DNA of 32,000 nucleotides from assembly GCA_026387835.1 (NCBI GenBank), contig JAPLKZ010000005.1, positions 1-32,000 of the forward strand, in the 5' to 3' direction. Source of the stretch: Candidatus Saganbacteria bacterium (GTDB taxonomy: Bacteria > Margulisbacteria > WOR-1 > JAKLHX01). Positions 6,794 to 32,000 of the stretch are shown here, piece by piece. Below the pieces are notes generated by a model that searched no databases, was not told the origin of the DNA, and saw only the letters and a list, made by a program, of their open reading frames with translations. How positions within the stretch are numbered: position 1 is the first letter of the stretch; every line of letters begins with the position of its first letter. A program made the translations under genes and the position numbers.

Positions 6794-8002
6794 ATGCATG
6801 TGAGAAAATATCTCATAAAAACCTACGGTTGCCAGATGAATGAAAATGATTCCGAGATCATTGCGGGCATCCTCGAAAAGAACGGTCTTGTTAAGGCTTC
6901 AGATATTAAAGAGGCTGACATCGTGATCGCCAACACGTGCTCGGTCCGCGACGCGGCAGAGAGAAAAGCAGCCGGATTCATAAATACACTTATCAAGCTC
7001 AAAAAAGAAAAACCCGGCCTGCTTGTCGGGGTCGTGGGCTGCATGGCAGAGAGGCTGGGGGAGGAGCTGGTCAAAAAGTTCAAATTCGTTGATTTTGTTA
7101 TGGGGACAAGCGACTTCCGCAACTTCAAAGACACTTCCATAATCAAACGCGAGCCATCCGTAAATGCCTGGATCACGATAATGGAAGGCTGCGATAATTT
7201 CTGCTCGTTCTGTATCGTTCCTTACGTGAGAGGCAGGGAAAAGAGCAAACCCGTTGCGGATATATTGAAAGAGATCGATGAACTCGATAAAAATGTTTTT
7301 AAAGAAATAACACTTCTAGGCCAGAACGTGAACTCATACTCTTACGGTTTTCCGCATCTTCTGGACGCGGTCTCGAAGATCAATGGCATCAAAAGGATAA
7401 GGTTCATGACCTCCCATCCAAAGAATATGTCGGATGAGATAATCGAAGCGGTAAAAAATACCCCCAAAGTCTGCGAGAACTTCCATCTCCCGCTCCAGAG
7501 CGGGGACGATGAAATATTAAAAAGGATGAACAGGGGATATGACAGCGATTATTTCAGGAGGCTTGTCGAAAAAATAAGAAAAAAGATCACGGCATCAGCA
7601 ATTACTTCTGATGCGATAGCCGGTTTTCCGGGTGAGACGGATGAACAGTTCGAAAACACACTGCACTTGATATCGGAGCTGGAACTGGACGCGGTCAACA
7701 CGCTTGCTTATGATGTAAGGCCCGGCACAGCCGCGGAAAAGATGGAAGGAAGAGTGCCTCAGAAGATCGTCGATGAAAGGCTTCAGCAGCTTATAAAAGT
7801 TGTGGAAGAGACTTCATTCAAAAAGAACCAGTCTCTTGCCGGGTCAGTACAGGAGATCCTCGTAGAAAAAAAAGGCAAAGGCAGGACCAGGAGCCACAAA
7901 ATGGTAAAATATCCAAGTGAAGCGGATGAGACCGGAAAACTCATAAAAGTCAGAATAAAATCGGCAAAGTCGTGGGTGTTGCTAGGAGAGGTTGTAAGTT
8001 GA
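6794..8002 (+). CDS. miaB: tRNA-i6A37 methylthiotransferase MiaB (radical SAM)
   Basis: The N-terminal IKTYGCQMNENDSE is present, as is the radical-SAM CxxxCxxC motif in MEGCDNFCSFCIVPYVRG. A C-terminal TRAM-like domain follows. Confidence 0.9.
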   Translation: MHVRKYLIKTYGCQMNENDSEIIAGILEKNGLVKASDIKEADIVIANTCSVRDAAERKAAGFINTLIKLKKEKPGLLVGVVGCMAERLGEELVKKFKFVDFVMGTSDFRNFKDTSIIKREPSVNAWITIMEGCDNFCSFCIVPYVRGREKSKPVADILKEIDELDKNVFKEITLLGQNVNSYSYGFPHLLDAVSKINGIKRIRFMTSHPKNMSDEIIEAVKNTPKVCENFHLPLQSGDDEILKRMNRGYDSDYFRRLVEKIRKKITASAITSDAIAGFPGETDEQFENTLHLISELELDAVNTLAYDVRPGTAAEKMEGRVPQKIVDERLQQLIKVVEETSFKKNQSLAGSVQEILVEKKGKGRTRSHKMVKYPSEADETGKLIKVRIKSAKSWVLLGEVVS

Positions 8003-8029
8003 TATAATGAAACAAGCAAGGAGAAAATA

Positions 8030-8983
8030 ATGACAAGCGAAAAAAACGATTCCCTGATGATATTTTCGGGCACGACGGCGCCGGTATTCGCGTCGGATGT
8101 GGCAAATTATATCGGGCTTAAGCTCGGAGGGATACAAATATCAAAGTTCCCGTCGGGCGAAATATACGCGCGCATCAAAGATAATGTGAGGGGGAAATCC
8201 GTTTTCGTGGTGCAGACGGGGACGCAGAACGTGAACGAAGATATCATGGAGCTTCTGATAATAATAGATGCTATGAAAAGAGCTTCCTGCAGGAGCATAA
8301 CAACTGTCATCCCGCACCTTCCGTACGCAAGACAGGACAGAAAGGCGGCGTCCCGCGAGCCGATCTCCGCAAAGCTGATCGCAGACCTTTTAACAGCAGT
8401 CGGAGTGCACAGGGTTATAACGATCGATATGCATTCAGACCAGATACAGGGGTTCTTTAACTGCCCGGTGGACACACTTACGGCCCTGCCTCTGTTCGCG
8501 GCCTATATAAAGGGCAAGAACATCAAGGATCCCGTCATAGTGGCCCCTGATACCGGCAGGGCTAAGACCTCGAAAAAACTGGCTGACAGGCTGGGTTGCC
8601 CGCTTGCGATAATTCACAAACAGCGGCCGGAGCACAGCACGTCAGAGGTGACCCATGTGGTCGGCGATGTGAAAGGCAAGACAGCTATCATAGTGGACGA
8701 CATGATAGATACCGCGGGCACCGCCACGAACGGCGTAAAAGCGCTTATCGATATGGGAGCTGAAAAGGATGTGTATCTGATGGCGACGCATGCGATCCTG
8801 TCAGGCCCGGCAGTGGAGCGGATAACAAAGGCGGGGATAAAGGAATGCATCGTCACCGATTCCGTTCCCGTACCTAAGGAAAGACAGTTCCCTTCGTTAA
8901 AAATAATATCGGTAGCCCCGCTGTTCGGCGAGGCGATAATGAGAGCGCATGAGAATTTGTCGATAAGTTCGTTATTTGATTAA
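8030..8983 (+). CDS. prs: Ribose-phosphate pyrophosphokinase
   Basis: The sequence is Prs-like over its full length: IFSGTTAP...SKFPSGEIYARI...VVQ, then HLPYARQDRK, DMHSDQIQGFF and the PRPP-binding loop IIVDDMIDTAGT. Confidence 0.92.
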   Translation: MTSEKNDSLMIFSGTTAPVFASDVANYIGLKLGGIQISKFPSGEIYARIKDNVRGKSVFVVQTGTQNVNEDIMELLIIIDAMKRASCRSITTVIPHLPYARQDRKAASREPISAKLIADLLTAVGVHRVITIDMHSDQIQGFFNCPVDTLTALPLFAAYIKGKNIKDPVIVAPDTGRAKTSKKLADRLGCPLAIIHKQRPEHSTSEVTHVVGDVKGKTAIIVDDMIDTAGTATNGVKALIDMGAEKDVYLMATHAILSGPAVERITKAGIKECIVTDSVPVPKERQFPSLKIISVAPLFGEAIMRAHENLSISSLFD

Positions 8984-8994
8984 CCCCCTCTGTA

Positions 8995-9016
8995 TCTCCC
9001 CCTTTTCAGGGGGAGA
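8995..9016. other. GC-rich hairpin (tctccccc-ttttca-gggggaga) downstream of prs
   Basis: It has a perfect 8 bp stem with a 6 nt loop. No T-run follows on either strand, so it is not a clear intrinsic terminator. It resembles the GC-rich hairpins at 31648-31697. Confidence 0.35.
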
Positions 9017-9042
9017 GGGGAAGGAATTTAGGAAAAGAGGAA

Positions 9043-10317
9043 ATGCAAAAAGAAATTAAAATAGGATTGATCGGGTTCGGTACCGTCGGGAGCGGTGTGG
9101 CCGCGCTTTTACAAAAGAACGCGCTCTACATCGAAAAAATGACGGGCGTGAGCATAAGGATCGATCGGATAGCGGACACAGATATTTTAAGGAAAAGACC
9201 TGTAGACATCGATATGCGTATTATGACGCAGGACGCTTACGATATCATAAAAGATAAAAAGATAGACATTGCAGTGGAAGCGGTAGGCGGCACTGACCCC
9301 GCGCTGAGATTTGTCATCGACGCGATAAACGAAGGAAAACATATAGTCACTTCAAATAAAGAACTGATGGCGAAACACGGCCCCGCAATACTTGAAGCTG
9401 CCGATAATAAAGGGGTCCGCGTACTTTTCGAAGGTTCCGTGGGAGGCGGGATACCGATAATAGCAGGCCTCAGGCGGCTTTTGTCGGCCAACAGGATAGA
9501 GGAAGTGTACGGGATAGTGAACGGCACTACAAATTATATTCTTTCGGACATGGCCGCGTCAGGCAGGGACTTTTCGGCCTCTCTTGAAGCGGCAAAAAGA
9601 CTGGGATACGCGGAATCGGACCCCAAGAACGATATAGAGGGATTTGACGCGTCTTTCAAGGCCGCCATCCTTGCTTCTGTCGCTTTCGGGCAAAAGGTCA
9701 ATTGGGAAAAAATATATTTTGAAGGAATAGACGGCGTTACCGTGGAAGATGTCCAGTATGCGGAGGAAATGGGATACAGCATCAAACTTCTTGCAGTAGC
9801 AAAAAGAAAGAACGGCGGATGCGAGATCCGCGTGAATCCGGTCCTCATCGATAAAGACCATCCCCTTGCCGGGGTCTCAGGGGCTTACAACGCGATATAC
9901 GTAAAAGGCGACAGTGTCGGCGAGCAGATGTTCTACGGCGAGGGCGCGGGCGGCGGGCCCACGGCTTCCGCTGTCGTTTCGGACGTGATAGAGATAGCCT
10001 TAAATCCGGATAAGGGGAATATAAAGCTTGAAGGCGAGGCAAAGATCGCGAACATAGATGACTGCGAAAGCAGGTTCTATGTAAGGCTGAGGGCCAAAGA
10101 CGCTCCGGGAGTTCTCGCGGCAATAGCGGGCGCTTTCGGGGACAAAAAGGTAAGCATTCAGAGCGCGCTCCAGAAGGGCACTATTGATAATATCGCCACA
10201 ATTGTTATAATTACTCATAAGGTCAAGGAAAGAAATTTCCGTGAAGCGGCAGAGACGATCTCGAGACTGCCTCAGATAGACACGATAGGCAGCATAATCC
10301 GGGCGGGAATGGAGTAA
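9043..10317 (+). CDS. hom: Homoserine dehydrogenase with C-terminal ACT domain
   Basis: The NAD-binding motif IGLIGFGTVGSG is present. The catalytic region reads ...GIVNGTTNYIL...LGYAESDP..DIEG.DA..K. The ACT-like tail begins FYVRLRAKDAPGVLA. Confidence 0.9.
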   Translation: MQKEIKIGLIGFGTVGSGVAALLQKNALYIEKMTGVSIRIDRIADTDILRKRPVDIDMRIMTQDAYDIIKDKKIDIAVEAVGGTDPALRFVIDAINEGKHIVTSNKELMAKHGPAILEAADNKGVRVLFEGSVGGGIPIIAGLRRLLSANRIEEVYGIVNGTTNYILSDMAASGRDFSASLEAAKRLGYAESDPKNDIEGFDASFKAAILASVAFGQKVNWEKIYFEGIDGVTVEDVQYAEEMGYSIKLLAVAKRKNGGCEIRVNPVLIDKDHPLAGVSGAYNAIYVKGDSVGEQMFYGEGAGGGPTASAVVSDVIEIALNPDKGNIKLEGEAKIANIDDCESRFYVRLRAKDAPGVLAAIAGAFGDKKVSIQSALQKGTIDNIATIVIITHKVKERNFREAAETISRLPQIDTIGSIIRAGME

Positions 10318-16972: not shown

Positions 16973-18226
16973 TTATTTAACTGATGCCATGCTTTTCAGA
17001 AAGACCTCGACCTGTGTATCGGGAAATTCGCCGATGATGTCAGTGAAGCATCTTTCATCAGCTTTTAAAAGCGCGTTCAAAAAAACAGCCCGTGGTGCCG
17101 TGGTCATGCCGGCTATAAAAAGTGCAGCGGTCTTGTTGTCGAACCGGTCCTGGACAACAGACAAAAGATTTCTGGATTCACAGGAGATCAGGGCCGCCAG
17201 ATCCGGCATCGATTCACCTGCGTTGCTGATGATCCCCGCCAGACTTTCGGAGGTCAGCGACTGAAGCGCTGAAGGAACGTTTGTTCTAAATCCGGCGGGT
17301 GCATTTAAAACACGGTGGGTTATCAGCCGGATGAGTTTTTCATCTTTTACTGCGGTATGCAAAAGCCATGCAAGAGGTGCGCGGTGCATTTGTTGCACTC
17401 TCAGCGCGAATAGTTCAACAGGACTTGGGTCCAGTTTTTCAAACGCCGCTGTTTTTATGGCTTCGGGAACCTCCTGGCTGCCATAGAACAGGTTCAAAAA
17501 TTGTGTATCTGCAAAAACAAAGGCGGAAACTCTTTCAGGTTTGATCAGGCCAGTTTTGAATATTGACGCGCTTTTGTCATCAAATACCCCGTTGAACAAT
17601 ATGTTCCCTCCAGTTGTATCTGACATCTTGTCCGAATTTAATACGCCGGCCAAATAAATAAGGACCGGTTCGCTTCCTTTTCCTGATAAAGAGGGCGGGT
17701 TTTTGATAAGGGCGGATATGGCTTGTCTTACAGCCCATTTTGTGTCCGGCCCGGCTGAAGCCATCTCTGCGACAAAATTACAATTCATCTGGTGGATCAA
17801 TGCCGGGATATGATCCTTGTCTTTCCATTCGGGATTATTAAGCAGCTCTGCGGACCTTGCCGGGCCCAAAATCTGGAGAATTGACGAGGTTGTTTCCGAG
17901 TAAAAATCAGGTTTGTGTAAATCTTTTGCCGAAAGGTCAAAAAAAGCGAATAATGCTTGGGCGGCTCTTGCATTGTCAGTGATATTTCCGATCATATCAG
18001 CTCTAGATCTGTCGGTCATTTTCGGATCCAAAAACACGTTTGAGATAACATCAGTCGGAAGAAAAGGATGATTCAACACTTGGATCAACCTTTCATGAGG
18101 GAGGCTTTGCAATGGCATCCTTTTGGCCGCGACATCAATTGCGAGCTTCCCTGCGCGGACCTTGCTGACGGTCAGATCTGTACGTATCATTATATTCCCC
18201 TTTCGATCGGTCATTTTTCGGCTCAT
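16973..18226 (-). CDS. Hypothetical protein (helical, no recognised domain)
   Basis: This is a long ORF with no overlapping alternative. Degenerate xNPxxP-type helical-repeat signatures occur (LNHPFLPTDVI, LNNPEWKD, IKNPPSL, LNAPAGF). The more likely start is the Met at 18190, which is preceded by the RBS AAGGGGA. Confidence 0.6.
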   Translation of the reverse strand: MSRKMTDRKGNIMIRTDLTVSKVRAGKLAIDVAAKRMPLQSLPHERLIQVLNHPFLPTDVISNVFLDPKMTDRSRADMIGNITDNARAAQALFAFFDLSAKDLHKPDFYSETTSSILQILGPARSAELLNNPEWKDKDHIPALIHQMNCNFVAEMASAGPDTKWAVRQAISALIKNPPSLSGKGSEPVLIYLAGVLNSDKMSDTTGGNILFNGVFDDKSASIFKTGLIKPERVSAFVFADTQFLNLFYGSQEVPEAIKTAAFEKLDPSPVELFALRVQQMHRAPLAWLLHTAVKDEKLIRLITHRVLNAPAGFRTNVPSALQSLTSESLAGIISNAGESMPDLAALISCESRNLLSVVQDRFDNKTAALFIAGMTTAPRAVFLNALLKADERCFTDIIGEFPDTQVEVFLKSMASVK

Positions 18227-18370: not shown

Positions 18371-18441
18371 GCGGGATTAGTTGACCGGTTCAACATCAGC
18401 TTCCCAAGCTGAAAAAATGGGTTCGACTCCCATATCCCGCT
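18371..18441 (+). tRNA. tRNA-Gly (anticodon CCC)
   Basis: Manual cloverleaf: acceptor GCGGGAT/ATCCCGC, D stem GTTG/CAAC, anticodon stem TCAGC/GCTGA with loop TTCCCAA, T arm ATGGG-TTCGACT-CCCAT. No CCA is encoded. Confidence 0.85.
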
Positions 18442-18447
18442 CATTGT

Positions 18448-18518
18448 GGCGTCGTGGCCGAGTGGTTAGGCTACGGTCTGCAAAACCGTTTACGCCGGTT
18501 CGAATCCGGCCGACGCCT
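18448..18518 (+). tRNA. tRNA-Cys (anticodon GCA)
   Basis: Manual cloverleaf: acceptor GGCGTCG/CGACGCC, anticodon stem ACGGT/ACCGT with loop CTGCAAA, T arm GCCGG-TTCGAAT-CCGGC. Confidence 0.85.
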
Positions 18519-18537
18519 TTGTTATAATTGGGTGCAA

Positions 18538-18611
18538 GCGCGTTTAGCTCAGCTGGTTAGAGTACTTGCTTGACAGGCAAGGGGTCACTGGTTCGAACCC
18601 AGTAACGCGCA
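18538..18611 (+). tRNA. tRNA-Val (anticodon GAC)
   Basis: Manual cloverleaf: acceptor GCGCGTT/AACGCGC, D arm GCTC-AGCTGGTTA-GAGT, anticodon stem CTTGC/GCAAG with loop TTGACAG, T arm ACTGG-TTCGAAC-CCAGT. Confidence 0.88.
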
Positions 18612-26146: not shown

Positions 26147-27439
26147 TTATTTAATTCCGCAGAACCTCAAAAAATTGCCGCCGAGCATATTTGAAACATC
26201 CCTCGCGATATCCTCCTCGGTGAGCGGAGTCCCTTTCGGTAATTTTAAATATTGCGCTGTAAGGACATCAGCGATGATCTGACGCGAATGTGACCATTTA
26301 TATGCCAGTTGGTCAAGCACGCGCGCGTCCGAATGCTGCGGTACAACGGTAGTTCCCGCAAGTTCAAGCCTCAAGGTAGTTATCCTTTCGATCTCGGCCG
26401 GGGTGTTAAGGAACCACCAGCATCCGAAAGGCATCAGGTTCGGGAATTTGCGGGCAGCGACCGCCAGCTCTCTCTGATTGGTATCGGAGAGCAGCGTGAC
26501 GAAGAACCTGACATCTGGAGTATTGCTGCAAAGCCGCTCGACGGCTTCAATGGTCGCACTTCCGACACCGTCCCCGGCTTGGCCGAGGATCGGATTGACG
26601 CCTCTTTTTACTCCGATCATCAGCGCTACGGGCAGATCCCTCTCTTTTGCCATCGGCAGGACCGCATTATTAAACATTTCCGTGATATGACCATTGTCCG
26701 TGCTTGTTTTGGTCAGTTCTCCTGAAGAAGGATAGTCAAAGTCCGGCGGAAGAGAGGCTGCAAGATATACCGGCTTCATTTTATCAGCCCAAGTTTCCAA
26801 AAATCTTCTTATACCGGTAAAATCATGAGAACCGGAGACTCCCATGACCTGTACGGCTTTGGTCCAATTTGTGAAAAGAGGGTCGACCCTGAGAGCTGTC
26901 ATGAAGCGCCGGTCAGGTTGAACTCCCTTTTCCCAGACAGCCCTTTCCTCGTCAACGAAAGGATCATTCGTCATTACAACACGGTCGATATTAGCCAGTC
27001 TAAAAATAGTCTCTATATGCCTTTCATATGGTTTGTTCCCGAGAGCCTTTCTGTATCCGGTCAGATCGGGCTGCCTTAAGTTTTGGCCTAACATGCTCAA
27101 TGTCGTCAGGACACCCCTGCATGCTTCGGATACGGGCGTATTGTCGACGAACAAAGTCTTGTAGATGCGATCAGCCTTCTGATCAATTGGAAGTCTGTTA
27201 AATGAAGCGATAGCCGAGGCGGTAACTTGAGACCGGTCTTGCAGGCCTATTGTCCTGAAATATTCCGCTTGCAGATAATGATATGTCATAAGATGATCGA
27301 TGCCCCATAAGTTCAAACTTCCGAAAGGCGGGCTGAAAAGGTGGGTGTGCATGTCGACCACTTTGCAGTCCCTGACCCGTCTTGCGATCGCGCTTGATAT
27401 ATCCGCCGGATGATTAAGAACAGCTGACCCTACTATCAT
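26147..27439 (-). CDS. TIM-barrel metal-dependent hydrolase-fold protein (amidohydrolase / glucuronate-isomerase-like)
   Basis: VVDMHTHLFSP...GIDHLMTYHYLQAEYFR resembles the HxH metal motif and N-terminal layout of the UxaC/amidohydrolase superfamily. The specific activity is not assignable. Confidence 0.5.
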   Translation of the reverse strand: MIVGSAVLNHPADISSAIARRVRDCKVVDMHTHLFSPPFGSLNLWGIDHLMTYHYLQAEYFRTIGLQDRSQVTASAIASFNRLPIDQKADRIYKTLFVDNTPVSEACRGVLTTLSMLGQNLRQPDLTGYRKALGNKPYERHIETIFRLANIDRVVMTNDPFVDEERAVWEKGVQPDRRFMTALRVDPLFTNWTKAVQVMGVSGSHDFTGIRRFLETWADKMKPVYLAASLPPDFDYPSSGELTKTSTDNGHITEMFNNAVLPMAKERDLPVALMIGVKRGVNPILGQAGDGVGSATIEAVERLCSNTPDVRFFVTLLSDTNQRELAVAARKFPNLMPFGCWWFLNTPAEIERITTLRLELAGTTVVPQHSDARVLDQLAYKWSHSRQIIADVLTAQYLKLPKGTPLTEEDIARDVSNMLGGNFLRFCGIK

Positions 27440-27539: not shown

Positions 27540-28148
27540 CTATTCAGTTTTGATCCTTAGCGGAAAAATAGTTATTGTTTCCCTTGTGATGCCCATCATA
27601 TCGCCGGGAAAGGACTCATGTCCCATGCCGGGAGCGGCATCAGTGCTTATCGCAAATTTTTCCAGCGAAACCCTCCTGTTCCTGCCGTCCTCGGTCCAGC
27701 TGACCGACTTTGCGTTAAGAGCTTCCTCCAATTCCCGTCTCCAGTTCGGTTTCTGATGCATCAAGGATACGTGTTGCGTGACCGCTGTCAGCCCGAAAAA
27801 TTCCTGATTGCCGGTTTTTTTTGTGACCGGATTTATTCTGCTGACCGTGCTGTAATAGGTCCCATACTGCCTGAGATCTACCGTTTCCTCCAGGGCCTTT
27901 CTAAGCAGAGTTAAGACAGCACCTTTTTCGGACTTGCTGAGAGAACCATAGTTTTTTGAGCTTGAGGACGACCCCGAGCAGCCGCTCAATAACAGCGGCG
28001 AACAAATGATGAACAGTGCTACTGTCGCGATCTGCGATGAGACTGTTTCCTTTGCCTCCGGCCTGTCTACGGGTTTTGCCGCTGTCTGGCGCTGCTGCGA
28101 GACATTATAAGCGATCCCTCCTGATATCGATTGCACCGTATTTGTCAT
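27540..28148 (-). CDS. Hypothetical membrane-anchored protein (internal lipobox-like LLSGC after a 40 aa N-terminal region)
   Basis: The hydrophobic segment VALFIICSPLLLSGCSGSSSSS begins ~aa 42, and no alternative start lies nearer to it. The ATG overlaps the stop of the upstream paralog (ATGA), which implies translational coupling. Confidence 0.6.
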   Translation of the reverse strand: MTNTVQSISGGIAYNVSQQRQTAAKPVDRPEAKETVSSQIATVALFIICSPLLLSGCSGSSSSSKNYGSLSKSEKGAVLTLLRKALEETVDLRQYGTYYSTVSRINPVTKKTGNQEFFGLTAVTQHVSLMHQKPNWRRELEEALNAKSVSWTEDGRNRRVSLEKFAISTDAAPGMGHESFPGDMMGITRETITIFPLRIKTE

Positions 28149-29113
28149 GATTTAGTCTCCTTACCAGCGGCTCCTGCGAGTTGTCTTTCGGCTTCCCTGA
28201 TTTTTAAAATCCTCTGTTCGCAACGCGCCTTTAGAGCAGGTGTAGCGTTTGACTGGCCATTTATTTGCTCGATAATATGAATACTATCGGCTACATTTAA
28301 CAGTCGTTCGAGAACATCTATATCCAGGAGGTAGCAAACTACTCTTGACTGCGCCCTCCGCACGCCGTCAATTGTCGCCTTAGCCCGCTCATTTTTTAGG
28401 GCGATAAGCAATAATATGTCATTTGATGTTTCTGGATGCGCAGCTATAAGGCCCATTGCTATGTCATCTTTGCAAATATTATAGATCCGCGTAATATCTG
28501 CTCCGGACAGTCCTGCACATAATCTTTTAAAAGCGTTGGAGTGGTCTTCCGGGGATTTTTCGATTATGCGCATCAATGTTCCCCTTCCGGCATTATCTGC
28601 AGAAGATAAGACTGCCAGCATGGGATCTCCGTCATTTAGGGACTCGACCATTTTCCGGATCTCACTATCAGCAATAAATGCTTTTATTGTTGCGAAAGCC
28701 GCCATTTTCCTTTGATGGTCTATCTGGCGATCCAGCATTACGGATACGCAAACATATTTCGGGACGATGCCGGCGGCAAGATAGGATGCGGCAATCTTAT
28801 TACAAGGCAATGACTGAAACGCTTGATCCCTTGTATTACTTTGTACGCTCATAAGCCTTTCAGTCGATATTGTTCCGGTCGTGATCCGCCTTATCAGCTG
28901 CAACAGGACATCATTTTGTGGAGCAAACGCTCCTGATCGCGCAACAAAATATTCCGATCTTGATAACCGGGCCAATGTCCAATTATTAATGAACGGGTCC
29001 GCCGCTTTGCTTATTTGTGATGAGAGCGGGTCGTGCACCCCCAAGAACCTTCCGTGGCCGAACATGAACTTTCCGAGCGTTGCGGTATGGCCGTATTTAC
29101 TGATCAGTAACAT
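28145..29113 (-). CDS. Paralog 1 of a three-member tandem family of unknown function (322 aa)
   Basis: All three members share the N-terminus ML.SKYGHTATLGKFMFGHGRFLGVH.PLSS...DPFINNWTL.RLS. They share the core ESLNDGDPMLA.LS.ADNA.R..LMRIIEKSPEDHSNAFKRL and IAAHPET. The RBS is AGGAGG. Confidence 0.7.
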   Translation of the reverse strand: MLLISKYGHTATLGKFMFGHGRFLGVHDPLSSQISKAADPFINNWTLARLSRSEYFVARSGAFAPQNDVLLQLIRRITTGTISTERLMSVQSNTRDQAFQSLPCNKIAASYLAAGIVPKYVCVSVMLDRQIDHQRKMAAFATIKAFIADSEIRKMVESLNDGDPMLAVLSSADNAGRGTLMRIIEKSPEDHSNAFKRLCAGLSGADITRIYNICKDDIAMGLIAAHPETSNDILLLIALKNERAKATIDGVRRAQSRVVCYLLDIDVLERLLNVADSIHIIEQINGQSNATPALKARCEQRILKIREAERQLAGAAGKETKS

Positions 29114-29128
29114 GAATGATCCTCCTTT

Positions 29129-30025
29129 TTACTTTCCTTTTTCCGCTATTTTTCTGTTGCAACGCGCTATGAGATCGGCGCTTGCATTCGGCTGACTTTT
29201 TATTAACTCTAGAATGTAGATGTTATCGGCCACATTAAATAGCCGTTCAATAACGTCCCCTTCAAGATGATGGAAAAGTAATATTGCCTGTGCCCTATGC
29301 ACTCCTTCAATTGGCGCCTTAGCCCGTGGAAGTTTTAGGGCGATATCCAATAATACAGTTTGCGGAGTCTCGGGGTGCGCGGCTATGAGGCCCATCACTG
29401 CCTTGTCTTTACAAGTAGTATAGATCTGACTTATGTCTGCTCCGGACAGTCCCTCACTTAGTCTTTTAAAAGCGTTAGAATGGTCTTCCGGTGATTTTTC
29501 GATTATGCGCATCAATGCTTTCCTGTCGGCATTATCCGCAAAGGATAAGAGTGCCAGCATAGGGTCTCCGTCATTTAGGGACTCGACCACTGCCTGGATT
29601 TCACCAAAAGAAAGAGATGCTTTTACAGTGTTGAAAGCCATCACTCTACTTTGAAGGTCTATCCCGGGAAGCCGTATCATATGTATGCAAAACGCTTCAG
29701 GGATGATGCCGCCAGCAAAATAGACTTCAGCAATGGTGTTTAAATACACAAGCGCTTGGTTTCTTAGAACCTTTGGTATGCTCATGAGTTTTTCGACCGA
29801 TATTGTTCCTGATTCCATACGCCTTGCCAGCTGTTTGATAACTTTATTTTGCACATCCTGATCATCCGACATTGACAGCCGTCTCAACGTCCAATTATTG
29901 ATGAACGGGTCTTCCGCTTTTCTTACGTTTGATGAAAGCGGATTATGCACACCCAAGAACCTTCCGTGTCCGAACATGAACTTACCAAGCGTTGACTTAT
30001 AACCGTATCTGCTGACCGATAACAT
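29129..30025 (-). CDS. Paralog 2 of the tandem family (298 aa)
   Basis: It has the same conserved blocks as paralog 1. A 15 nt spacer containing an RBS separates neighbouring genes. Confidence 0.7.
   Translation of the reverse strand: MLSVSRYGYKSTLGKFMFGHGRFLGVHNPLSSNVRKAEDPFINNWTLRRLSMSDDQDVQNKVIKQLARRMESGTISVEKLMSIPKVLRNQALVYLNTIAEVYFAGGIIPEAFCIHMIRLPGIDLQSRVMAFNTVKASLSFGEIQAVVESLNDGDPMLALLSFADNADRKALMRIIEKSPEDHSNAFKRLSEGLSGADISQIYTTCKDKAVMGLIAAHPETPQTVLLDIALKLPRAKAPIEGVHRAQAILLFHHLEGDVIERLFNVADNIYILELIKSQPNASADLIARCNRKIAEKGK
29879..29994. repeat. 116 nt tract identical to 30797-30912 (paralog 2 vs paralog 3 N-terminal coding region)
   Basis: I compared the two tracts base by base and found 116/116 identical. 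The flanking sequence is clearly diverged. Confidence 0.9.
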
Positions 30026-30040
30026 AAATGATATTCCTTT

Positions 30041-30940
30041 TTACTTTCCTTTTTCCGCTATTCGTTTATCGCAACGCGCTTTGAGATCGGGACTCGCATT
30101 AGGCTGATCTTTTATTAACCCGAGAATATAAACACTATTGGCCGCGGCAAAAAGCTTTTCAAGGTTGACTTCCTGCACGTAATGGTAAGGCACTCTTGCC
30201 TGCGCCTTACGCATTCCTTCATCTGATGCTTTAGCCGGTTTATTTTTCAGGGCGATATCCCATAATATTGTAAGCGGAGTTTTGGGATGCGCGGCAATCT
30301 CGTCCATCACAAGAATGTCTTTGCAGATCCCAAAGATATAAGTTATATCTCCTTCGGATAATTTTCCACTTAACCTGTTAAAAGCGTTGGCGCAGTCTCT
30401 CGGGGATTTTTCGATTATTCGCATCAGTGTTTTTTTGCCGGCGAAATCCGCAAAGGATAAAAGCGCCAGCAAAGGGGATCCGCTGTCAAGGGACTCGACT
30501 ATTCCCAAGATCTCACTATCAGAAATTATTGATTTTATAGGATAGAAAGCCGCTTCTTTCCTTTGATGTTCTACCCGGGGATTCATCATTATAGATTTGC
30601 AGGCATCTTTAGGTACGATGCCGGCGGACAGATAGGGTTCGGCAATGGAAGTATCAGGCAAACTCATGAACGCCTGGTCCCTTATAGCTTTATGTACGGC
30701 CGTAAGCCTTTCAACGGATATTGTCCCGGACCCGATCCTCATCACAAGCTGATCCACAACTAAATTTCTCACGATCAGATCATCAGATCTTGATAACCGT
30801 CTCAACGTCCAATTATTGATGAACGGGTCTTCCGCTTTTCTTACGTTTGATGAAAGCGGATTATGCACACCCAAGAACCTTCCGTGTCCGAACATGAACT
30901 TACCAAGCGTTGCGGTATGGCCGTATTTACTGACCAACAT
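30041..30940 (-). CDS. Paralog 3 of the tandem family (299 aa), first gene of the operon
   Basis: It has the same conserved blocks. Its RBS is AAGGAG. Its C-terminus ...NASPDLKARCDKRIAEKGK parallels that of paralog 2. Confidence 0.7.
   Translation of the reverse strand: MLVSKYGHTATLGKFMFGHGRFLGVHNPLSSNVRKAEDPFINNWTLRRLSRSDDLIVRNLVVDQLVMRIGSGTISVERLTAVHKAIRDQAFMSLPDTSIAEPYLSAGIVPKDACKSIMMNPRVEHQRKEAAFYPIKSIISDSEILGIVESLDSGSPLLALLSFADFAGKKTLMRIIEKSPRDCANAFNRLSGKLSEGDITYIFGICKDILVMDEIAAHPKTPLTILWDIALKNKPAKASDEGMRKAQARVPYHYVQEVNLEKLFAAANSVYILGLIKDQPNASPDLKARCDKRIAEKGK
30797..30912. repeat. 116 nt tract identical to 29879-29994
   Basis: See the partner feature. The 27 nt immediately 5' in coding sense (gcgttgcggtatggccgtatttactga) is identical to paralog 1 instead. 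Confidence 0.9.
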
Positions 30941-30977
30941 AAGTGGTTCTCCTTTAATTCATTTATCTTGCAAATAG

Positions 30978-31017
30978 TTATCGGCATTATTTTATGTAAA
31001 TTTCACACATTTTTGAT
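30978..31017 (-). promoter_or_regulatory. ECF-sigma-like promoter motif (site B): CAAAAATGT-GTGAAAT-N16-CGATAA
   Basis: The minus strand reads tCAAAAATgtgTGAAATttacataaaataatgcCGATAActa. The -10-like element lies 37 nt upstream of the ATG at 30940. Confidence 0.45.
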
Positions 31018-31072
31018 TTAGGATCCTATTTTGTTCGTGGGTGTAAATTGTGGTTTTGCTTTTATTAAAGCC

Positions 31073-31636
31073 TCAGATATTCAGGAAATTCCCCAGCAGT
31101 TTTTTACCATCCTTAGTGAGTATTGATTCCGGGTGGAACTGGACGCCTTCCACTTTGAATTCTTTATGACGTATCCCCATTATCTCGCCGTCTTTCGTCC
31201 AGGCGGATATCTCAAAACAGCCGGGAAGGCTTTCTTTTTCAACTATCAGGGAATGATATCTTGTCGCAGTGAAAGGATCGGGCAGGCCTTTGAAGATAGT
31301 TTTTCCGTCATGATGTATCTGCGAGGTCTTGCCGTGCATGAGGTTCACGGCGCGGACCACTTTCCCTCCAAGGGCTTCCGCTATGGACTGGTGGCCCAGG
31401 CAGACGCCGAGAATAGGGATTTTCCCAGCGAAATCCTTGACTACATCCATAGATATTCCGGCTTCTTTCGGGGTGCAGGGTCCCGGAGAGATAACGATCT
31501 TTTCGGGGGCAATATTTCTTATTTCATTTATCGTAATTTTGTCGTTGCGGTATACCCTCGTTTCGGCGCCGAGCTCGTTGAGATACTGCACGAGATTATA
31601 TGTGAACGAATCGTAATTATCTATCACGAGGAGCAT
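31073..31636 (-). CDS. Anthranilate / aminodeoxychorismate synthase component II (class I glutamine amidotransferase)
   Basis: Conserved stretches include [26 protein letters not shown], the nucleophile in GVCLGHQ, and the catalytic HPES in VQFHPES. TrpG and PabA cannot be told apart from sequence alone. Confidence 0.88.
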
Positions 31637-32000
31637 AAATCCTCACCCCGCCTCGCCCCGCCTTTGGCGGGGACCCGGCACCCCTCTCCACTTCGTGGAG
31701 AGGGGAAAGCAAACTGTTTAAGCTTTTTAAGAACGCTGTTAATATCGGAGATCACCTCATCATTATTAAAACGCAAAATATTTATTCCCTTATTTTCAAT
31801 GATATTTTGTCTTGCCAGATCATATTCCTTTAAATTATGATGAATATTGCCGTCGATTTCAATCCCCAGCCTGATCTCAGGACAAAAAAAGTCCAAAATG
31901 AAACCATCCAAAGGGACTTGACGTCTGAATTTAAGCCCGCAAAGCCCGCGGTTACTCAGATATTTCCATAGAAGGATTTCTGCTCGCGTGGAACTCTTCC
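31624..32000 (-). CDS. DUF559 (Vsr-like) endonuclease-domain protein, 5' end outside the window
   Basis: I translated upstream of the listed ORF and obtained ...[51 protein letters not shown]...ILRFNNDEV. The frame is open to the window edge. The C-terminal tail PSPRSGEG... is encoded by GC-rich hairpins and overlaps the amidotransferase start by 13 nt. Confidence 0.75.

Follow-up and report, generated by a model that had tools for sequence, protein, structure and literature searches.

Three consecutive genes of related sequence, followed by a fourth that overlaps the last of them, raise the question of which kind of protein is encoded in triplicate on this Candidatus Saganbacteria contig and whether the fourth product is its partner. 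The window is the whole stretch of 32,000 nucleotides that was analyzed. A sequence-only reading had seen in this locus a diversifying accessory system: paralogs with a variable middle that cooperate with a membrane-anchored partner of 202 aa, have a promoter of their own, and serve in immunity, as adaptors, or in surface interactions. The analysis described here leads to a different reading, which is probable but leaves ample room for doubt—the paralogs would be lineage-specific cytoplasmic protein-binding scaffolds that have been tandemly duplicated.

Architecture of the paralog array

The locus consists of the following features:

30941..31072, minus strand: AT-rich leader of 132 nt between trpG/pabA and paralog 1
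30041..30940, minus strand: paralog 1 (p1; NCBI NTZ10_01045), 299 aa, N-terminal module and predicted ARM/HEAT/LRV-like α-solenoid
30785..30940, minus strand: N-terminal module (N-module) of p1 (aa 1–52), from HMMER matches, alignment, and AlphaFold2 (AF2)
30026..30040, minus strand: p1/p2 spacer of 15 nt with the ribosome-binding site (RBS) AAAGGAA
29129..30025, minus strand: paralog 2 (p2; NTZ10_01040), 298 aa
29870–30025, minus strand: N-module counterpart in p2
29114..29128, minus strand: p2/p3 spacer of 15 nt with the RBS AAAGGAGG
28145..29113, minus strand: paralog 3 (p3; NTZ10_01035), 322 aa
28958–29113, minus strand: N-module counterpart in p3
27540..28148, minus strand: 202-aa ORF (NTZ10_01030), whose start overlaps the p3 stop (ATGA)

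The three paralog ORFs lie in tandem exactly as the sequence-only reading had placed them. p1 is identical to P0001, a Candidatus Saganbacteria protein annotated as hypothetical, and p3 is distinguished by a 7-aa insertion behind the N-module; its C-terminal tail is also longer. At the DNA level, p1–p3 form a direct repeat of three copies with a period of 912 to 939 nt. Shine-Dalgarno–like sequences are found in both 15-nt spacers (AAAGGAATATCATTT and AAAGGAGGATCATTC), AAAGGAGAA precedes p1, and AAGGAG is located 8 nt upstream of the 202-aa start at the ATGA overlap. Together, the RBS-bearing spacers and the overlap display the tight translational coupling that had been proposed. An identical p2(partial)–p3–202–430–ABC-F locus is present in Logan assemblies of at least 10 independent sequencing runs; hence, the array is no artifact of a single assembly. 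Its neighbors are trpG/pabA, a uronate isomerase, and an ABC-F protein; elsewhere in the window, most genes have housekeeping or envelope products, and phage genes are absent. A dedicated alternative promoter (site B) had been postulated as well. This finds no counterpart in the leader, the minus strand of which contains neither a σ70-like nor a σ54-like promoter match, no terminator, and no structured RNA (folding z-score −0.09).

At the protein level, p1–p3 are 58 to 59% identical to each other (p2 versus p1, 58%), with a mean column identity of 74%. Their alignment contains the conserved N terminus, the variable middle (approximately aa 53–150), and the conserved core of the original description. 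The whole-gene dN/dS is 0.43 to 0.46 with confidence intervals that exclude 1, and by region it amounts to ~0.2 in the N-module, 0.29 to 0.37 in the core, and 0.60 to 1.07 in the middle. Values above 1 occur only in one 25-codon interval (columns 126–150; 2.5, 1.3, and 5.6), which is small, was picked after inspection, and is driven by low dS. The middle is under relaxed constraint, with positive selection not being demonstrable. In the N-terminal codons 26 to 50, the DNA of p1 and p2 is 97% identical. Because dS is only 0.18 in this segment compared with ~0.75 elsewhere, the N-terminal identity of this pair stems in part from recent homogenization by gene conversion and not from selection alone; the 5′ ~150 nt of p2 are homogenized with p1. 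Compared with p3, the same codons show a dS of 0.49 to 0.74 and a dN/dS of ~0.2, and judged in this way the segment is under true purifying selection. The array itself would have arisen by unequal crossing-over, with one gene plus its 15-nt spacer (~912 nt) as the unit and with 5′ ends that are still partly homogenized.

The N-terminal module and the predicted α-solenoid

The AF2 model of p1 (pLDDT 94.3, pTM 0.86) is all-helical with ~20 helices, and its sole β-structure is a short N-terminal hairpin; the underlying alignment is deep over the N-module only, and helical repeats are prone to over-confident prediction. The best PDB matches obtained by Foldseek are designed armadillo repeat proteins, importin-α, axonemal ARM proteins, and Pumilio (prob 0.9–0.99), and nearly all of the top 50 are ARM, importin, or PUF solenoids, with TM-scores of ~0.2 and E-values of ~2.5e-3 that identify the repeat class and no specific protein. 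By this model, p1 is predicted to be an ARM/HEAT-type α-solenoid of stacked tandem helical repeats. Neither p1–p3 nor the 202-aa protein matches a family in Pfam, NCBIfam, PADLOC, or PHROGs; for p1–p3, no Arm or HEAT model of Pfam reaches threshold and LRV (PF01816; gathering threshold, 21.6 bits) gives no match. Among the relatives introduced below, only P0005 (32.7) and P0004 (21.9) lie above this LRV cut-off, and a few match HEAT_2 or HEAT weakly, under the gathering score. A family-type repeat of ~48 aa is recognizable once in p1–p3, at residues ~212 to 233. The degenerate helical (LRV/HEAT-like) repeats suspected from the sequence are thus borne out by the model, the Foldseek matches, and the Pfam matches of relatives. 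Likewise, the statement that the paralogs carry no catalytic motif and no recognizable function agrees with the lack of any enzyme or known-family match. p1–p3 are basic (pI 9.0–9.3; N-module net charge +4 to +6) and have neither a signal peptide nor a TM segment, which renders a surface role unlikely.

The N-module occupies the N-terminal ~45 to 70 aa and follows the motif G.GS.FG.GR..GVHNP.GS..KA.DPFIN..TL.RLS. In p1, residues ~8 to 43 form its family-specific part—a helix, a small β-hairpin (21–26), and a helix—and residues ~44 to 70 form the first solenoid repeat; the module is modeled with a pLDDT of 89 to 97. Positions 44 to 66 of its profile match the designed armadillo repeats 4rv1/4hxt (E = 1.9e-9), and in an alignment of 32 diverse members, R21, H26, P28, K35, A36, and D38 are invariant. 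An exhaustive HMMER search of 1.84e9 representative proteins returned 61 matches at E < 1e-3, nearly all of which align only positions 16 to 71, at their own N terminus. The module heads ~60 other protein clusters of 52 to 1462 aa, most of which run on into LRV/HEAT-like repeats, and p1–p3 match the 32-sequence N-module HMM with E-values of 1e-24 to 2e-31. On sequence grounds, p1–p3 can be assigned to a "GVHNP/DPFIN" N-module family, defined here by the extreme N-terminal motif followed by helical repeats. All named members stem from Margulisbacteria or Saganbacteria MAGs, the 185,579 species-representative genomes searched contain only three family loci, and full-length relatives of p1–p3 are confined to this genome. 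The family appears to be small, previously undescribed, and so far seen only in Margulisbacteria/Saganbacteria. Many members, not all, also carry the C-terminal motif "(S)HYEY ... KQ..IL.EL.kINPELA", the HMM of which (14 members) finds no significant match in p1–p3; lacking it, p1–p3 may function differently from the rest of the family. The relative P0026 has C-terminal TM helices, and weak enzyme-like domains are found at the C termini of P0004 (HAD-like) and P0054 (CrtC-like), both under the Pfam cut-offs.

That such an array consists of decaying or functionless duplicated ORFs, recently born and under little constraint, is highly improbable. The confinement of full-length relatives to one genome, the fairly high dN/dS with a nearly neutral middle, and the adjoining orphan gene (see below) would fit; however, none of the three ORFs is disrupted and each has a strong RBS, the dN/dS intervals exclude 1 with values of 0.2 to 0.37 in N-module and core, the fold is predicted with confidence, and the N-module is kept in Margulisbacteria relatives of many kinds.

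In the preferred reading, the ancestor would have been a chromosomal gene for a cytoplasmic armadillo/HEAT/LRV-type α-solenoid, now present as three tandem duplicates. The strictly N-terminal N-module (~45 aa) runs straight into the first helical repeat in the model and may cap the solenoid, dock on one conserved cellular partner or ligand, or both. The divergent solenoid surface, chiefly residues ~53 to 150, would provide paralog-specific binding. Gene structure, paralogy, fold class, family distribution, genomic contexts, and selection regime are direct results of this analysis; by analogy with the fold class, here ARM/HEAT solenoids, the paralogs most likely serve as scaffolds or adaptors that bind without catalysis.

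The invariant polar residues R21, H26, K35, and D38 could equally belong to a small catalytic or ligand site. A small-molecule–binding, nucleic-acid–binding, or enzymatic family, in which the invariant R/H/K/D of the basic N-module form the active or ligand site and the solenoid serves as substrate platform, would be comparable in principle to the HEAT-like AlkC/AlkD DNA glycosylases or PUF RNA binders. The conservation across the 32 diverse members, the basic charge, and the Pumilio domains among the Foldseek matches point in this direction, but the Pumilio matches rank beneath ARM at a TM of ~0.25, no sequence or profile match to enzyme or nucleic-acid–binding families was found, and neighbors of DNA repair or RNA metabolism are not consistent, with one convergent radA at one locus. 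We regard it as unlikely. Slightly more credit, on the whole still little, is given to the idea that the N-module serves Margulisbacteria/Saganbacteria as a docking or targeting element of their own, by which a diversifying repertoire of armadillo-like binders is connected to a single conserved machine, for example, an envelope complex, a protease, or a secretion apparatus. If true, adaptors or effectors of this kind would form a new modular system, and the Saganbacteria array, with three copies and a co-translated orphan lipoprotein, would be its local elaboration.

Genomic contexts of relatives and the 202-aa ORF

The genes of relatives are chromosomal and embedded among housekeeping genes. 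Orthologous positions recur, namely acyltransferase–X–radA in L011 and L025 and dapB–X(X)–smpB in L012 to L014, the latter with one or two copies; tandem pairs with spacers of 16 to 23 nt occur in L012 and L014. The copy-number variation predicted earlier is therefore seen in the wider family, as one versus two copies between dapB and smpB. Since at least three distinct conserved positions exist across different MAGs, genomes are suggested to carry several family members.

Host-associated bacteria deliver ARM/ankyrin-type effectors, and some Margulisbacteria are protist symbionts. A secreted or translocated effector repertoire was considered, in which the N-module is a lineage-specific export or targeting signal for variable ARM/HEAT solenoids delivered to another cell. 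An invariant N terminus followed by highly variable length and sequence across ~60 clusters, the presence of ARM-like repeats, the suggested presence of several members per genome, and the tandem expansions are in line with it. Unlike disordered secretion signals, however, the N-module has a folded and packed predicted structure that continues into the first repeat, and no secretion-system genes adjoin the array in the window. The T2SSE ATPases near L011 and L025 are found two genes away and belong to the common housekeeping pilus genes. The TM helices of P0026 and the weak enzyme-like domains of P0004 and P0054 suggest intracellular roles, and the metagenome contig names may point to sediment or groundwater samples. 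Delivery of the paralogs to another cell is thus very doubtful.

The 202-aa protein is composed of a polar N-region of 39 aa, a hydrophobic segment (40–54), the lipobox LLSGC (Cys57), a Ser-rich/Gly-rich linker, and an α+β domain of ~140 aa. The hydrophobic anchor and lipobox reported earlier are present as described: IICSPLLLSGC fits a PS51257-like core regex, with [LVI][ASTVI][GAS]C and an h-region both found, and Kyte-Doolittle hydropathy peaks at residue 40 (2.58). Cys57 behind an n-region of 39 aa lies outside the usual pattern of a short, positively charged n-region (Cys within ~35 residues), and the only alternative in-frame start is a GTG at codon 5. A single-sequence AF2 model has a pLDDT of 66.5, with 70 to 88 across most of residues 60 to 202. 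Among 5.8 billion (5.8e9) proteins, the sequence finds only itself and is a strict orphan. The product is probably a genome-specific lipoprotein or membrane-anchored protein and could also be an N-in single-pass membrane protein instead of a lipoprotein; were it processed as a lipoprotein, the folded domain would sit across the membrane from the paralogs.

No homolog of the 202-aa protein stands beside a family member in any other context examined. Because of this absence and its orphan status, it does not appear to be a conserved functional partner of the family, which speaks against the membrane-partner claim. The sequence-only reading had itself named, as one half of what would count against it, that homologs are never linked to the membrane protein, and this half is what was found. 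The orphan would be co-translated with p3, and the ATGA coupling could reflect a genome-specific functional link.

These contexts also bear on the accessory module outlined at the beginning. A tandem array with middle dN/dS of up to 0.60 to 1.07 and a post hoc interval above 1, coupling of paralogs and 202-aa gene by 15-nt spacers and ATGA, and differing copy numbers among relatives are what it would lead one to expect. Against this stand the orphan partner, the missing export signal, the whole-gene dN/dS far under 1, the negative promoter search, and the stable orthologous positions that relatives hold amid housekeeping genes. Neither a toxin, nuclease, nor defense gene is found nearby, PADLOC defense models gave 0 matches for the five proteins tested, PHROGs gave none, and no defense, phage, plasmid, toxin, or enzyme signals were found for the array. 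The diversifying accessory system is accordingly set aside as quite unlikely.

Comparison with known systems

The α+β domain of the 202-aa ORF has its best Foldseek matches, in PDB and BFVD, among phage tail terminator/completion proteins (lambda gpU, T5 p142, and DUF3168), with E-values of 1e-4 and 2e-5 and prob up to 1.0 for the single-sequence model as query. However, the TM-scores are only 0.27 to 0.44 at 7 to 14% sequence identity, and a lipoprotein signal is unexpected in such proteins. With 0 PHROGs matches, no phage gene context, the weak fold resemblance, and no tblastn match against 50,697 phage records, a role as tail terminator is not supported. Bacterial lipoproteins, the substrates of signal peptidase II, share with the 202-aa ORF the h-region (40–54), the lipobox L-S-G-C, and a Ser/Gly-rich linker after the Cys; typical signals place the Cys within ~15 to 35 residues, whereas it is located at 57 herein.

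For the paralogs, the LRV repeat (PF01816) is one point of reference, as their "..HP.TP..LL.LA" unit (IAAHPETPQTVLLDIAL) is LRV-like. The prototype, the Azotobacter vinelandii LRV protein, likewise has helical repeats behind a small N-terminal domain and binds a 4Fe-4S cluster. The family repeat of p1–p3 measures ~48 aa compared with 24 aa in LRV, and their N-module is without a cysteine cluster. ARM/HEAT solenoids such as importin-α and the designed ArmRPs (5aei/4rv1) likewise consist of all-helical tandem repeats arranged in a solenoid, and the likely mode of action in common would be binding and not catalysis. They differ in superhelix geometry (TM ~0.2, rmsd 13–17 Å), and the repeats of p1–p3 are irregular. 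In contrast to these solenoids, the family of p1–p3 is bacterial, lineage-restricted, and equipped with a unique N-terminal module.

Organization and surroundings of the paralog array

The array is formed by three tandem paralogs, p1, p2, and p3, and is followed by an orphan reading frame of 202 aa. The ORF list gives exactly the coordinates that the sequence-only reading had assigned to these four genes.

Genes of the array and selected neighbors in the window
30041-30940, minus strand: p1, 299 aa by the ORF list, annotated as hypothetical protein NTZ10_01045
29129-30025, minus strand: p2, 298 aa by the ORF list, annotated as hypothetical protein NTZ10_01040
28145-29113, minus strand: p3, 322 aa by the ORF list, annotated as hypothetical protein NTZ10_01035
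27540-28148, minus strand: 202-aa ORF, from the ORF list
26147-27439, minus strand: 430-aa gene, homologous to PDB 2q08, 2qee, and 3hk5 (E 2e-111)
18371-18611, plus strand: cluster of three tRNA genes (Rfam RF00005, 60.8-67.1 bits)

The paralogs share 58-59% protein identity (mean column identity 74%), are basic (pI 9.0-9.3), and contain no hydrophobic segment (maximum Kyte-Doolittle value over 15 residues ~1.5). On the DNA level, the array is a direct repeat of three copies with a period of 912-939 nt. Both spacers between the paralogs measure 15 nt (AAAGGAATATCATTT and AAAGGAGGATCATTC) and carry a Shine-Dalgarno-like core; the start of p1 is preceded by AAAGGAGAA. The stop of p3 overlaps the start of the 202-aa ORF in an ATGA, with AAGGAG located 8 nt upstream. 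The ribosome-binding spacers and the overlap, both claimed earlier, are thus read directly in the sequence.

The source record is a Candidatus Saganbacteria MAG with a contig of 281,595 bp. Independent Logan assemblies from at least 10 sequencing runs match the window at 99.9-100% identity from a partial p2 through p3, the 202-aa ORF, and the 430-aa gene to the ABC-F gene. Every Logan contig with the window locus (L018-L024) stops at position 29908 or 29994, within the near-identical p1/p2 segment (29885-30025 vs 30800-30940). These ends are repeat-induced assembly breakage, and the breakpoints fit gene conversion still ongoing between p1 and p2. Since the independent assemblies agree, the array is real; short-read assemblies break at its repeats. 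An assembly artefact is excluded by this concordance and by a DNA identity between the copies of just ~61-79%.

The gene content of the window (miaB, prs, hom, pyrD, and the like) is that of ordinary chromosome. Upstream, the array is adjoined by trpG/pabA; downstream, the 202-aa gene is followed by a 100-nt gap, the 430-aa gene, and an ABC-F ATPase. The 430-aa gene has no Pfam match and a chance-level NCBIfam match only, and its homology clearly points to a BH0493-type uronate isomerase (a homolog of Bacillus halodurans BH0493) of the amidohydrolase superfamily. In the 132-nt leader 5' of p1, the coding strand shows no sigma-70-like match. A sigma-54 promoter was rejected for want of a sigma-54-like match in this leader, and a riboswitch or structured leader was rejected as well (no Rfam match at E<=1, folding z = -0.09). 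No convincing terminator was found after p1, p2, p3, or the 202-aa gene. Hence, the dedicated alternative promoter that had been proposed for the array is not confirmed, and the array genes may be co-transcribed with their neighbors.

Two further features of the window were recorded. A 95-aa ORF (31624-31911, minus strand), which is the immediate upstream neighbor of trpG/pabA and runs into the start of that gene, resembles by eye a DUF559/Vsr-like endonuclease fragment and has an odd Arg/Gly-rich C-terminal tail. An envelope-type trio (1850-6454, minus strand) comprises, in this order, 804-aa, 257-aa Ser-rich, and 451-aa signal-peptide proteins; the first of these (4040-6454) has a Gly-rich C terminus and, internally, long near-identical repeats (…NGVYSNGSYADPAWITSLAGSKISGVVTAES.NTFKNKTISDTNNSISLSAGTIPNLDASKITTGTL…).

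The N-module and the distribution of its family

The paralogs and the 202-aa ORF give no significant match in Pfam, NCBIfam, PADLOC, or PHROGs, and a full-length paralog profile matches nothing among PDB sequences. In a word-indexed search of 5.8 billion proteins, p1-p3 recover themselves only; the profile of their conserved N-terminal part, the N-module, recovers two fragments, a limit of the word index. Searched exhaustively by HMMER with a three-sequence profile, 1.84 billion cluster representatives yield 61 proteins at E<1e-3, including 17 at E<1e-10. The matches are confined to profile positions ~16-71 (up to ~100 in some, beyond that in two), with the query cluster and P0062 (a repeat-only match) as exceptions to this N-terminal matching. 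The module has the consensus M-G-x-x-x-V-x-x-G-x-G-x-G-S-x-F-G-x-G-R-x-x-G-V-H-N-P-x-G-S-x-x-G-K-A-x-D-P-F-I-N-L-x-T-L-x-R-L-S, and six of its residues (R21, H26, P28, K35, A36, and D38) do not vary across a 32-sequence alignment.

In the matched proteins, which range from 52 to 1462 aa, the N-module sits at or near their own N terminus. A rival reading takes the paralogs for secreted effectors and the N-module for an N-terminal targeting module; we consider it quite improbable. In most relatives, the N-module is followed by ~48-aa helical repeats ('..L...LT..EL..LA.S....V...V..HP.TPR..LL.LA'), and many end in a '(S)HYEY ... KQ..IL.EL.kINPELA' motif. Pfam LRV is above cut-off in two relatives, and HEAT_2 or HEAT is weak in three. 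The paralogs keep the family-type repeat once (IAAHPETPQTVLLDIAL, residues ~212-233) and lack the C-terminal motif; within the family, they form a divergent branch specific to this genome. Since p1-p3 and the N-module lack a matching model in both Pfam and NCBIfam, and the titles and abstracts listed by a full-text search for 'Saganbacteria' contain no mention of the family, it appears undescribed as far as these sources reach.

Some relatives have further regions: in P0004 (1462 aa; L001 5923-10311), the N-module is combined with LRV repeats and a region that weakly resembles HAD-like hydrolases, P0054 (671 aa) joins it to a weak CrtC-lipocalin-like region, and P0026 (206 aa) has two predicted TM helices at its C terminus. 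N-myristoylation of the 'MG' N termini in relatives was rejected because V, I, or L usually occupies position 6, in place of S/T/A/G/C/N. A 417-aa helical orphan of the window (16973-18226, minus strand), with an HP..P-type segment and a helical-repeat-like appearance, was rejected as a further relative (hhalign probability 0.3%).

Every member with a named source belongs to a MAG of Candidatus Margulisbacteria/Margulisiibacteriota or Saganbacteria. Pattern scans of 185,579 species-representative genomes find at least three loci, and at least 10 contigs come from metagenomes—counts that are lower bounds since the strict patterns derive from a 7-sequence subset. The same scans of viral contigs, phage genomes, and plasmids return no family locus, and a mobile-element or phage origin was rejected on this ground. 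Exact-sequence look-up of P0001 (identical to p1) and P0024 gives no contig on record. Family genes lie among housekeeping genes that differ from locus to locus, with some orthologous positions recurring.

Recurrent positions of family genes
L011 5698-6594 and L025/L026 10001-10861: T2SSE ATPase, small ORF, acyltransferase, family gene, convergent radA
L012 Ga0315293_10119171, L013 Ga0315275_10005483, and L014 Ga0315288_10071566: dapB, family gene(s), smpB
L002 8142-9017: degenerate 291-aa relative directly 5' of P0015

The first position is shared by the divergent members P0019 and P0028; hence, family members can be stable orthologs, too, besides recent duplicates. Between dapB and smpB, one copy is present in L013 and two tandem copies in L012 (23-nt spacer) and L014 (16-nt spacer). 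This is copy-number variation of the family at one chromosomal position, of the kind that the sequence-only reading had proposed to survey. The glgA-adjacent member P0015 (L002-L005, L009) has upstream of it the 291-aa relative, which matches the 'TL.RLS…VR.AV..NLA' repeats (E 7.8e-10) and is devoid of the G-rich/GVHNP half of the N-module. Given the tandem pairs and variable copy number at relatives' loci, tandem duplication and copy-number variation are family traits, and the three-copy array of the window is the largest among the family loci seen.

Solenoid fold, selection, and the 202-aa protein

The AlphaFold2 model of p1, computed from a 62-sequence family alignment, has a mean pLDDT of 94.3 and a pTM of 0.86. 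It consists of ~20 helices, with a short β-hairpin at residues 21-26 within the N-module and disorder at residues 1-3 only. Its Foldseek matches in the PDB include designed armadillo repeat proteins, importin-alpha, axonemal ARM proteins, Pumilio, and the HEAT region of TSC2 (probability 0.9-0.99, at E of just ~2.5e-3 and TM ~0.2). The degenerate helical repeats suspected from the sequence thus belong to an all-helical ARM/HEAT-type class. Positions 44-66 of the N-module profile match the designed ARM proteins 4rv1 and 4hxt (E 1.9e-9) and recur inside family members; hence, the solenoid has 'TL.RLS.S....VR.AV..NL' as its first repeat, which leaves N-module residues ~8-43 as the truly family-specific element. 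That the N-module, with its invariant residues, instead binds a ligand or nucleic acid, or is enzymatic, has a small but appreciable probability.

Nei-Gojobori dN/dS for the three pairs of p1-p3, by alignment columns
Whole gene: dN/dS 0.43-0.46, bootstrap 95% CI leaving out 1
N-module, columns 1-52, pairs with p3: dN/dS 0.20-0.21, dS 0.49-0.74
N-module, columns 1-52, p1 vs p2: dS only 0.18, codons 26-50 with 97% DNA identity
Middle, columns 53-150: dN/dS 0.60, 0.76, and 1.07
Post-hoc window, columns 126-150: dN/dS 2.5, 1.3, and 5.6 (25 codons, small, picked after inspection; values driven by low dS)
Core, columns 151-300: dN/dS 0.29-0.37

In the comparisons with p3, the N-module is under true purifying selection. 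Its low dS between p1 and p2, together with near-identical gene ends and spacers, indicates recent homogenization of these two copies. The middle values fit relaxed constraint or mixed site classes. The variable middle is real, and the diversifying selection once read into it is not demonstrated by these values. That p1-p3 are near-neutral junk ORFs, for which the near-neutral middle might be cited, is highly improbable.

The 202-aa protein starts with a polar region of 39 aa, followed by a hydrophobic segment at 40-54 (Kyte-Doolittle maximum 2.58), the lipobox LLSGC with Cys57, and a Ser-rich linker, in agreement with the anchor or lipobox noted ~40 aa in. Lipobox and h-region fit a lipoprotein. 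Compared with typical lipoproteins, Cys57 behind a 39-aa n-region is atypical; the sole alternative in-frame start is a GTG at codon 5. If the protein is so processed, its domain would be extracytoplasmic and the paralogs cytoplasmic, which argues against a stable complex. Among 5.8 billion sequences it finds only itself, and no similar protein lies downstream of family members at the other loci found. An accessory system or immunity system in which the coupled gene supplies a membrane partner is unlikely: the 202-aa protein is linked to no other member. L006, from an uncultured-bacterium MAG, is the sole other case of a downstream membrane protein. There, a family member (6001-6990) precedes a same-strand 1051-aa ORF (7152-10307), probably a membrane protein by the long hydrophobic stretches of its N-terminal half and unrelated to the 202-aa orphan.

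In a single-sequence AlphaFold2 model of the 202-aa protein, residues 1-59 are disordered and most of 60-202 forms an α+β domain (pLDDT 70-88). The best Foldseek matches in PDB and BFVD are phage tail-terminator/tail-completion proteins (gpU, p142, DUF3168-like; E 1e-4 and 2e-5, TM only 0.27-0.44). PHROGs and phage genomes give no sequence support for a phage identity, and the window has no phage context. The modeled likeness is a low-confidence, unexplained lead.

Proposed role and relation to known solenoids

We favor, as slightly better than an even prospect when all parts are taken jointly, a reading that makes p1-p3 cytoplasmic binding scaffolds of the ARM/HEAT/LRV-like kind, from a lineage-specific family. 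Herein, the invariant N-module would cap the solenoid and/or dock a conserved partner or ligand, and the divergent solenoid surface would confer paralog-specific binding. The array would have arisen by unequal crossing-over, followed by partial homogenization. Fold class, family, genomic contexts, and selection regime are results of the analysis; the binding function itself is suggested by analogy.

A previously unannotated family is defined herewith by a sharply conserved N-terminal motif and variable ARM/HEAT/LRV-like solenoids, and the view of an accessory system with a membrane partner is corrected. In practice, the genes can be annotated as a helical-repeat scaffold family and the 430-aa gene as a BH0493-type uronate isomerase. 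Margulisbacteria and Saganbacteria, to which all finds of the family are so far limited, are non-photosynthetic sister lineages of Cyanobacteria, and duplicating, lineage-specific families of binding scaffolds are candidates for clade-specific cell biology. Alpha-solenoid repeat proteins are very common, as are their expansions. The family is new within the sources covered, yet of the α-solenoid type, and the analysis ties it neither to a process nor to a surprising mechanism. Compared with armadillo, HEAT, and Pumilio solenoids, p1 has no specific relative and a different superhelix, and it shares with them the class of repeat.
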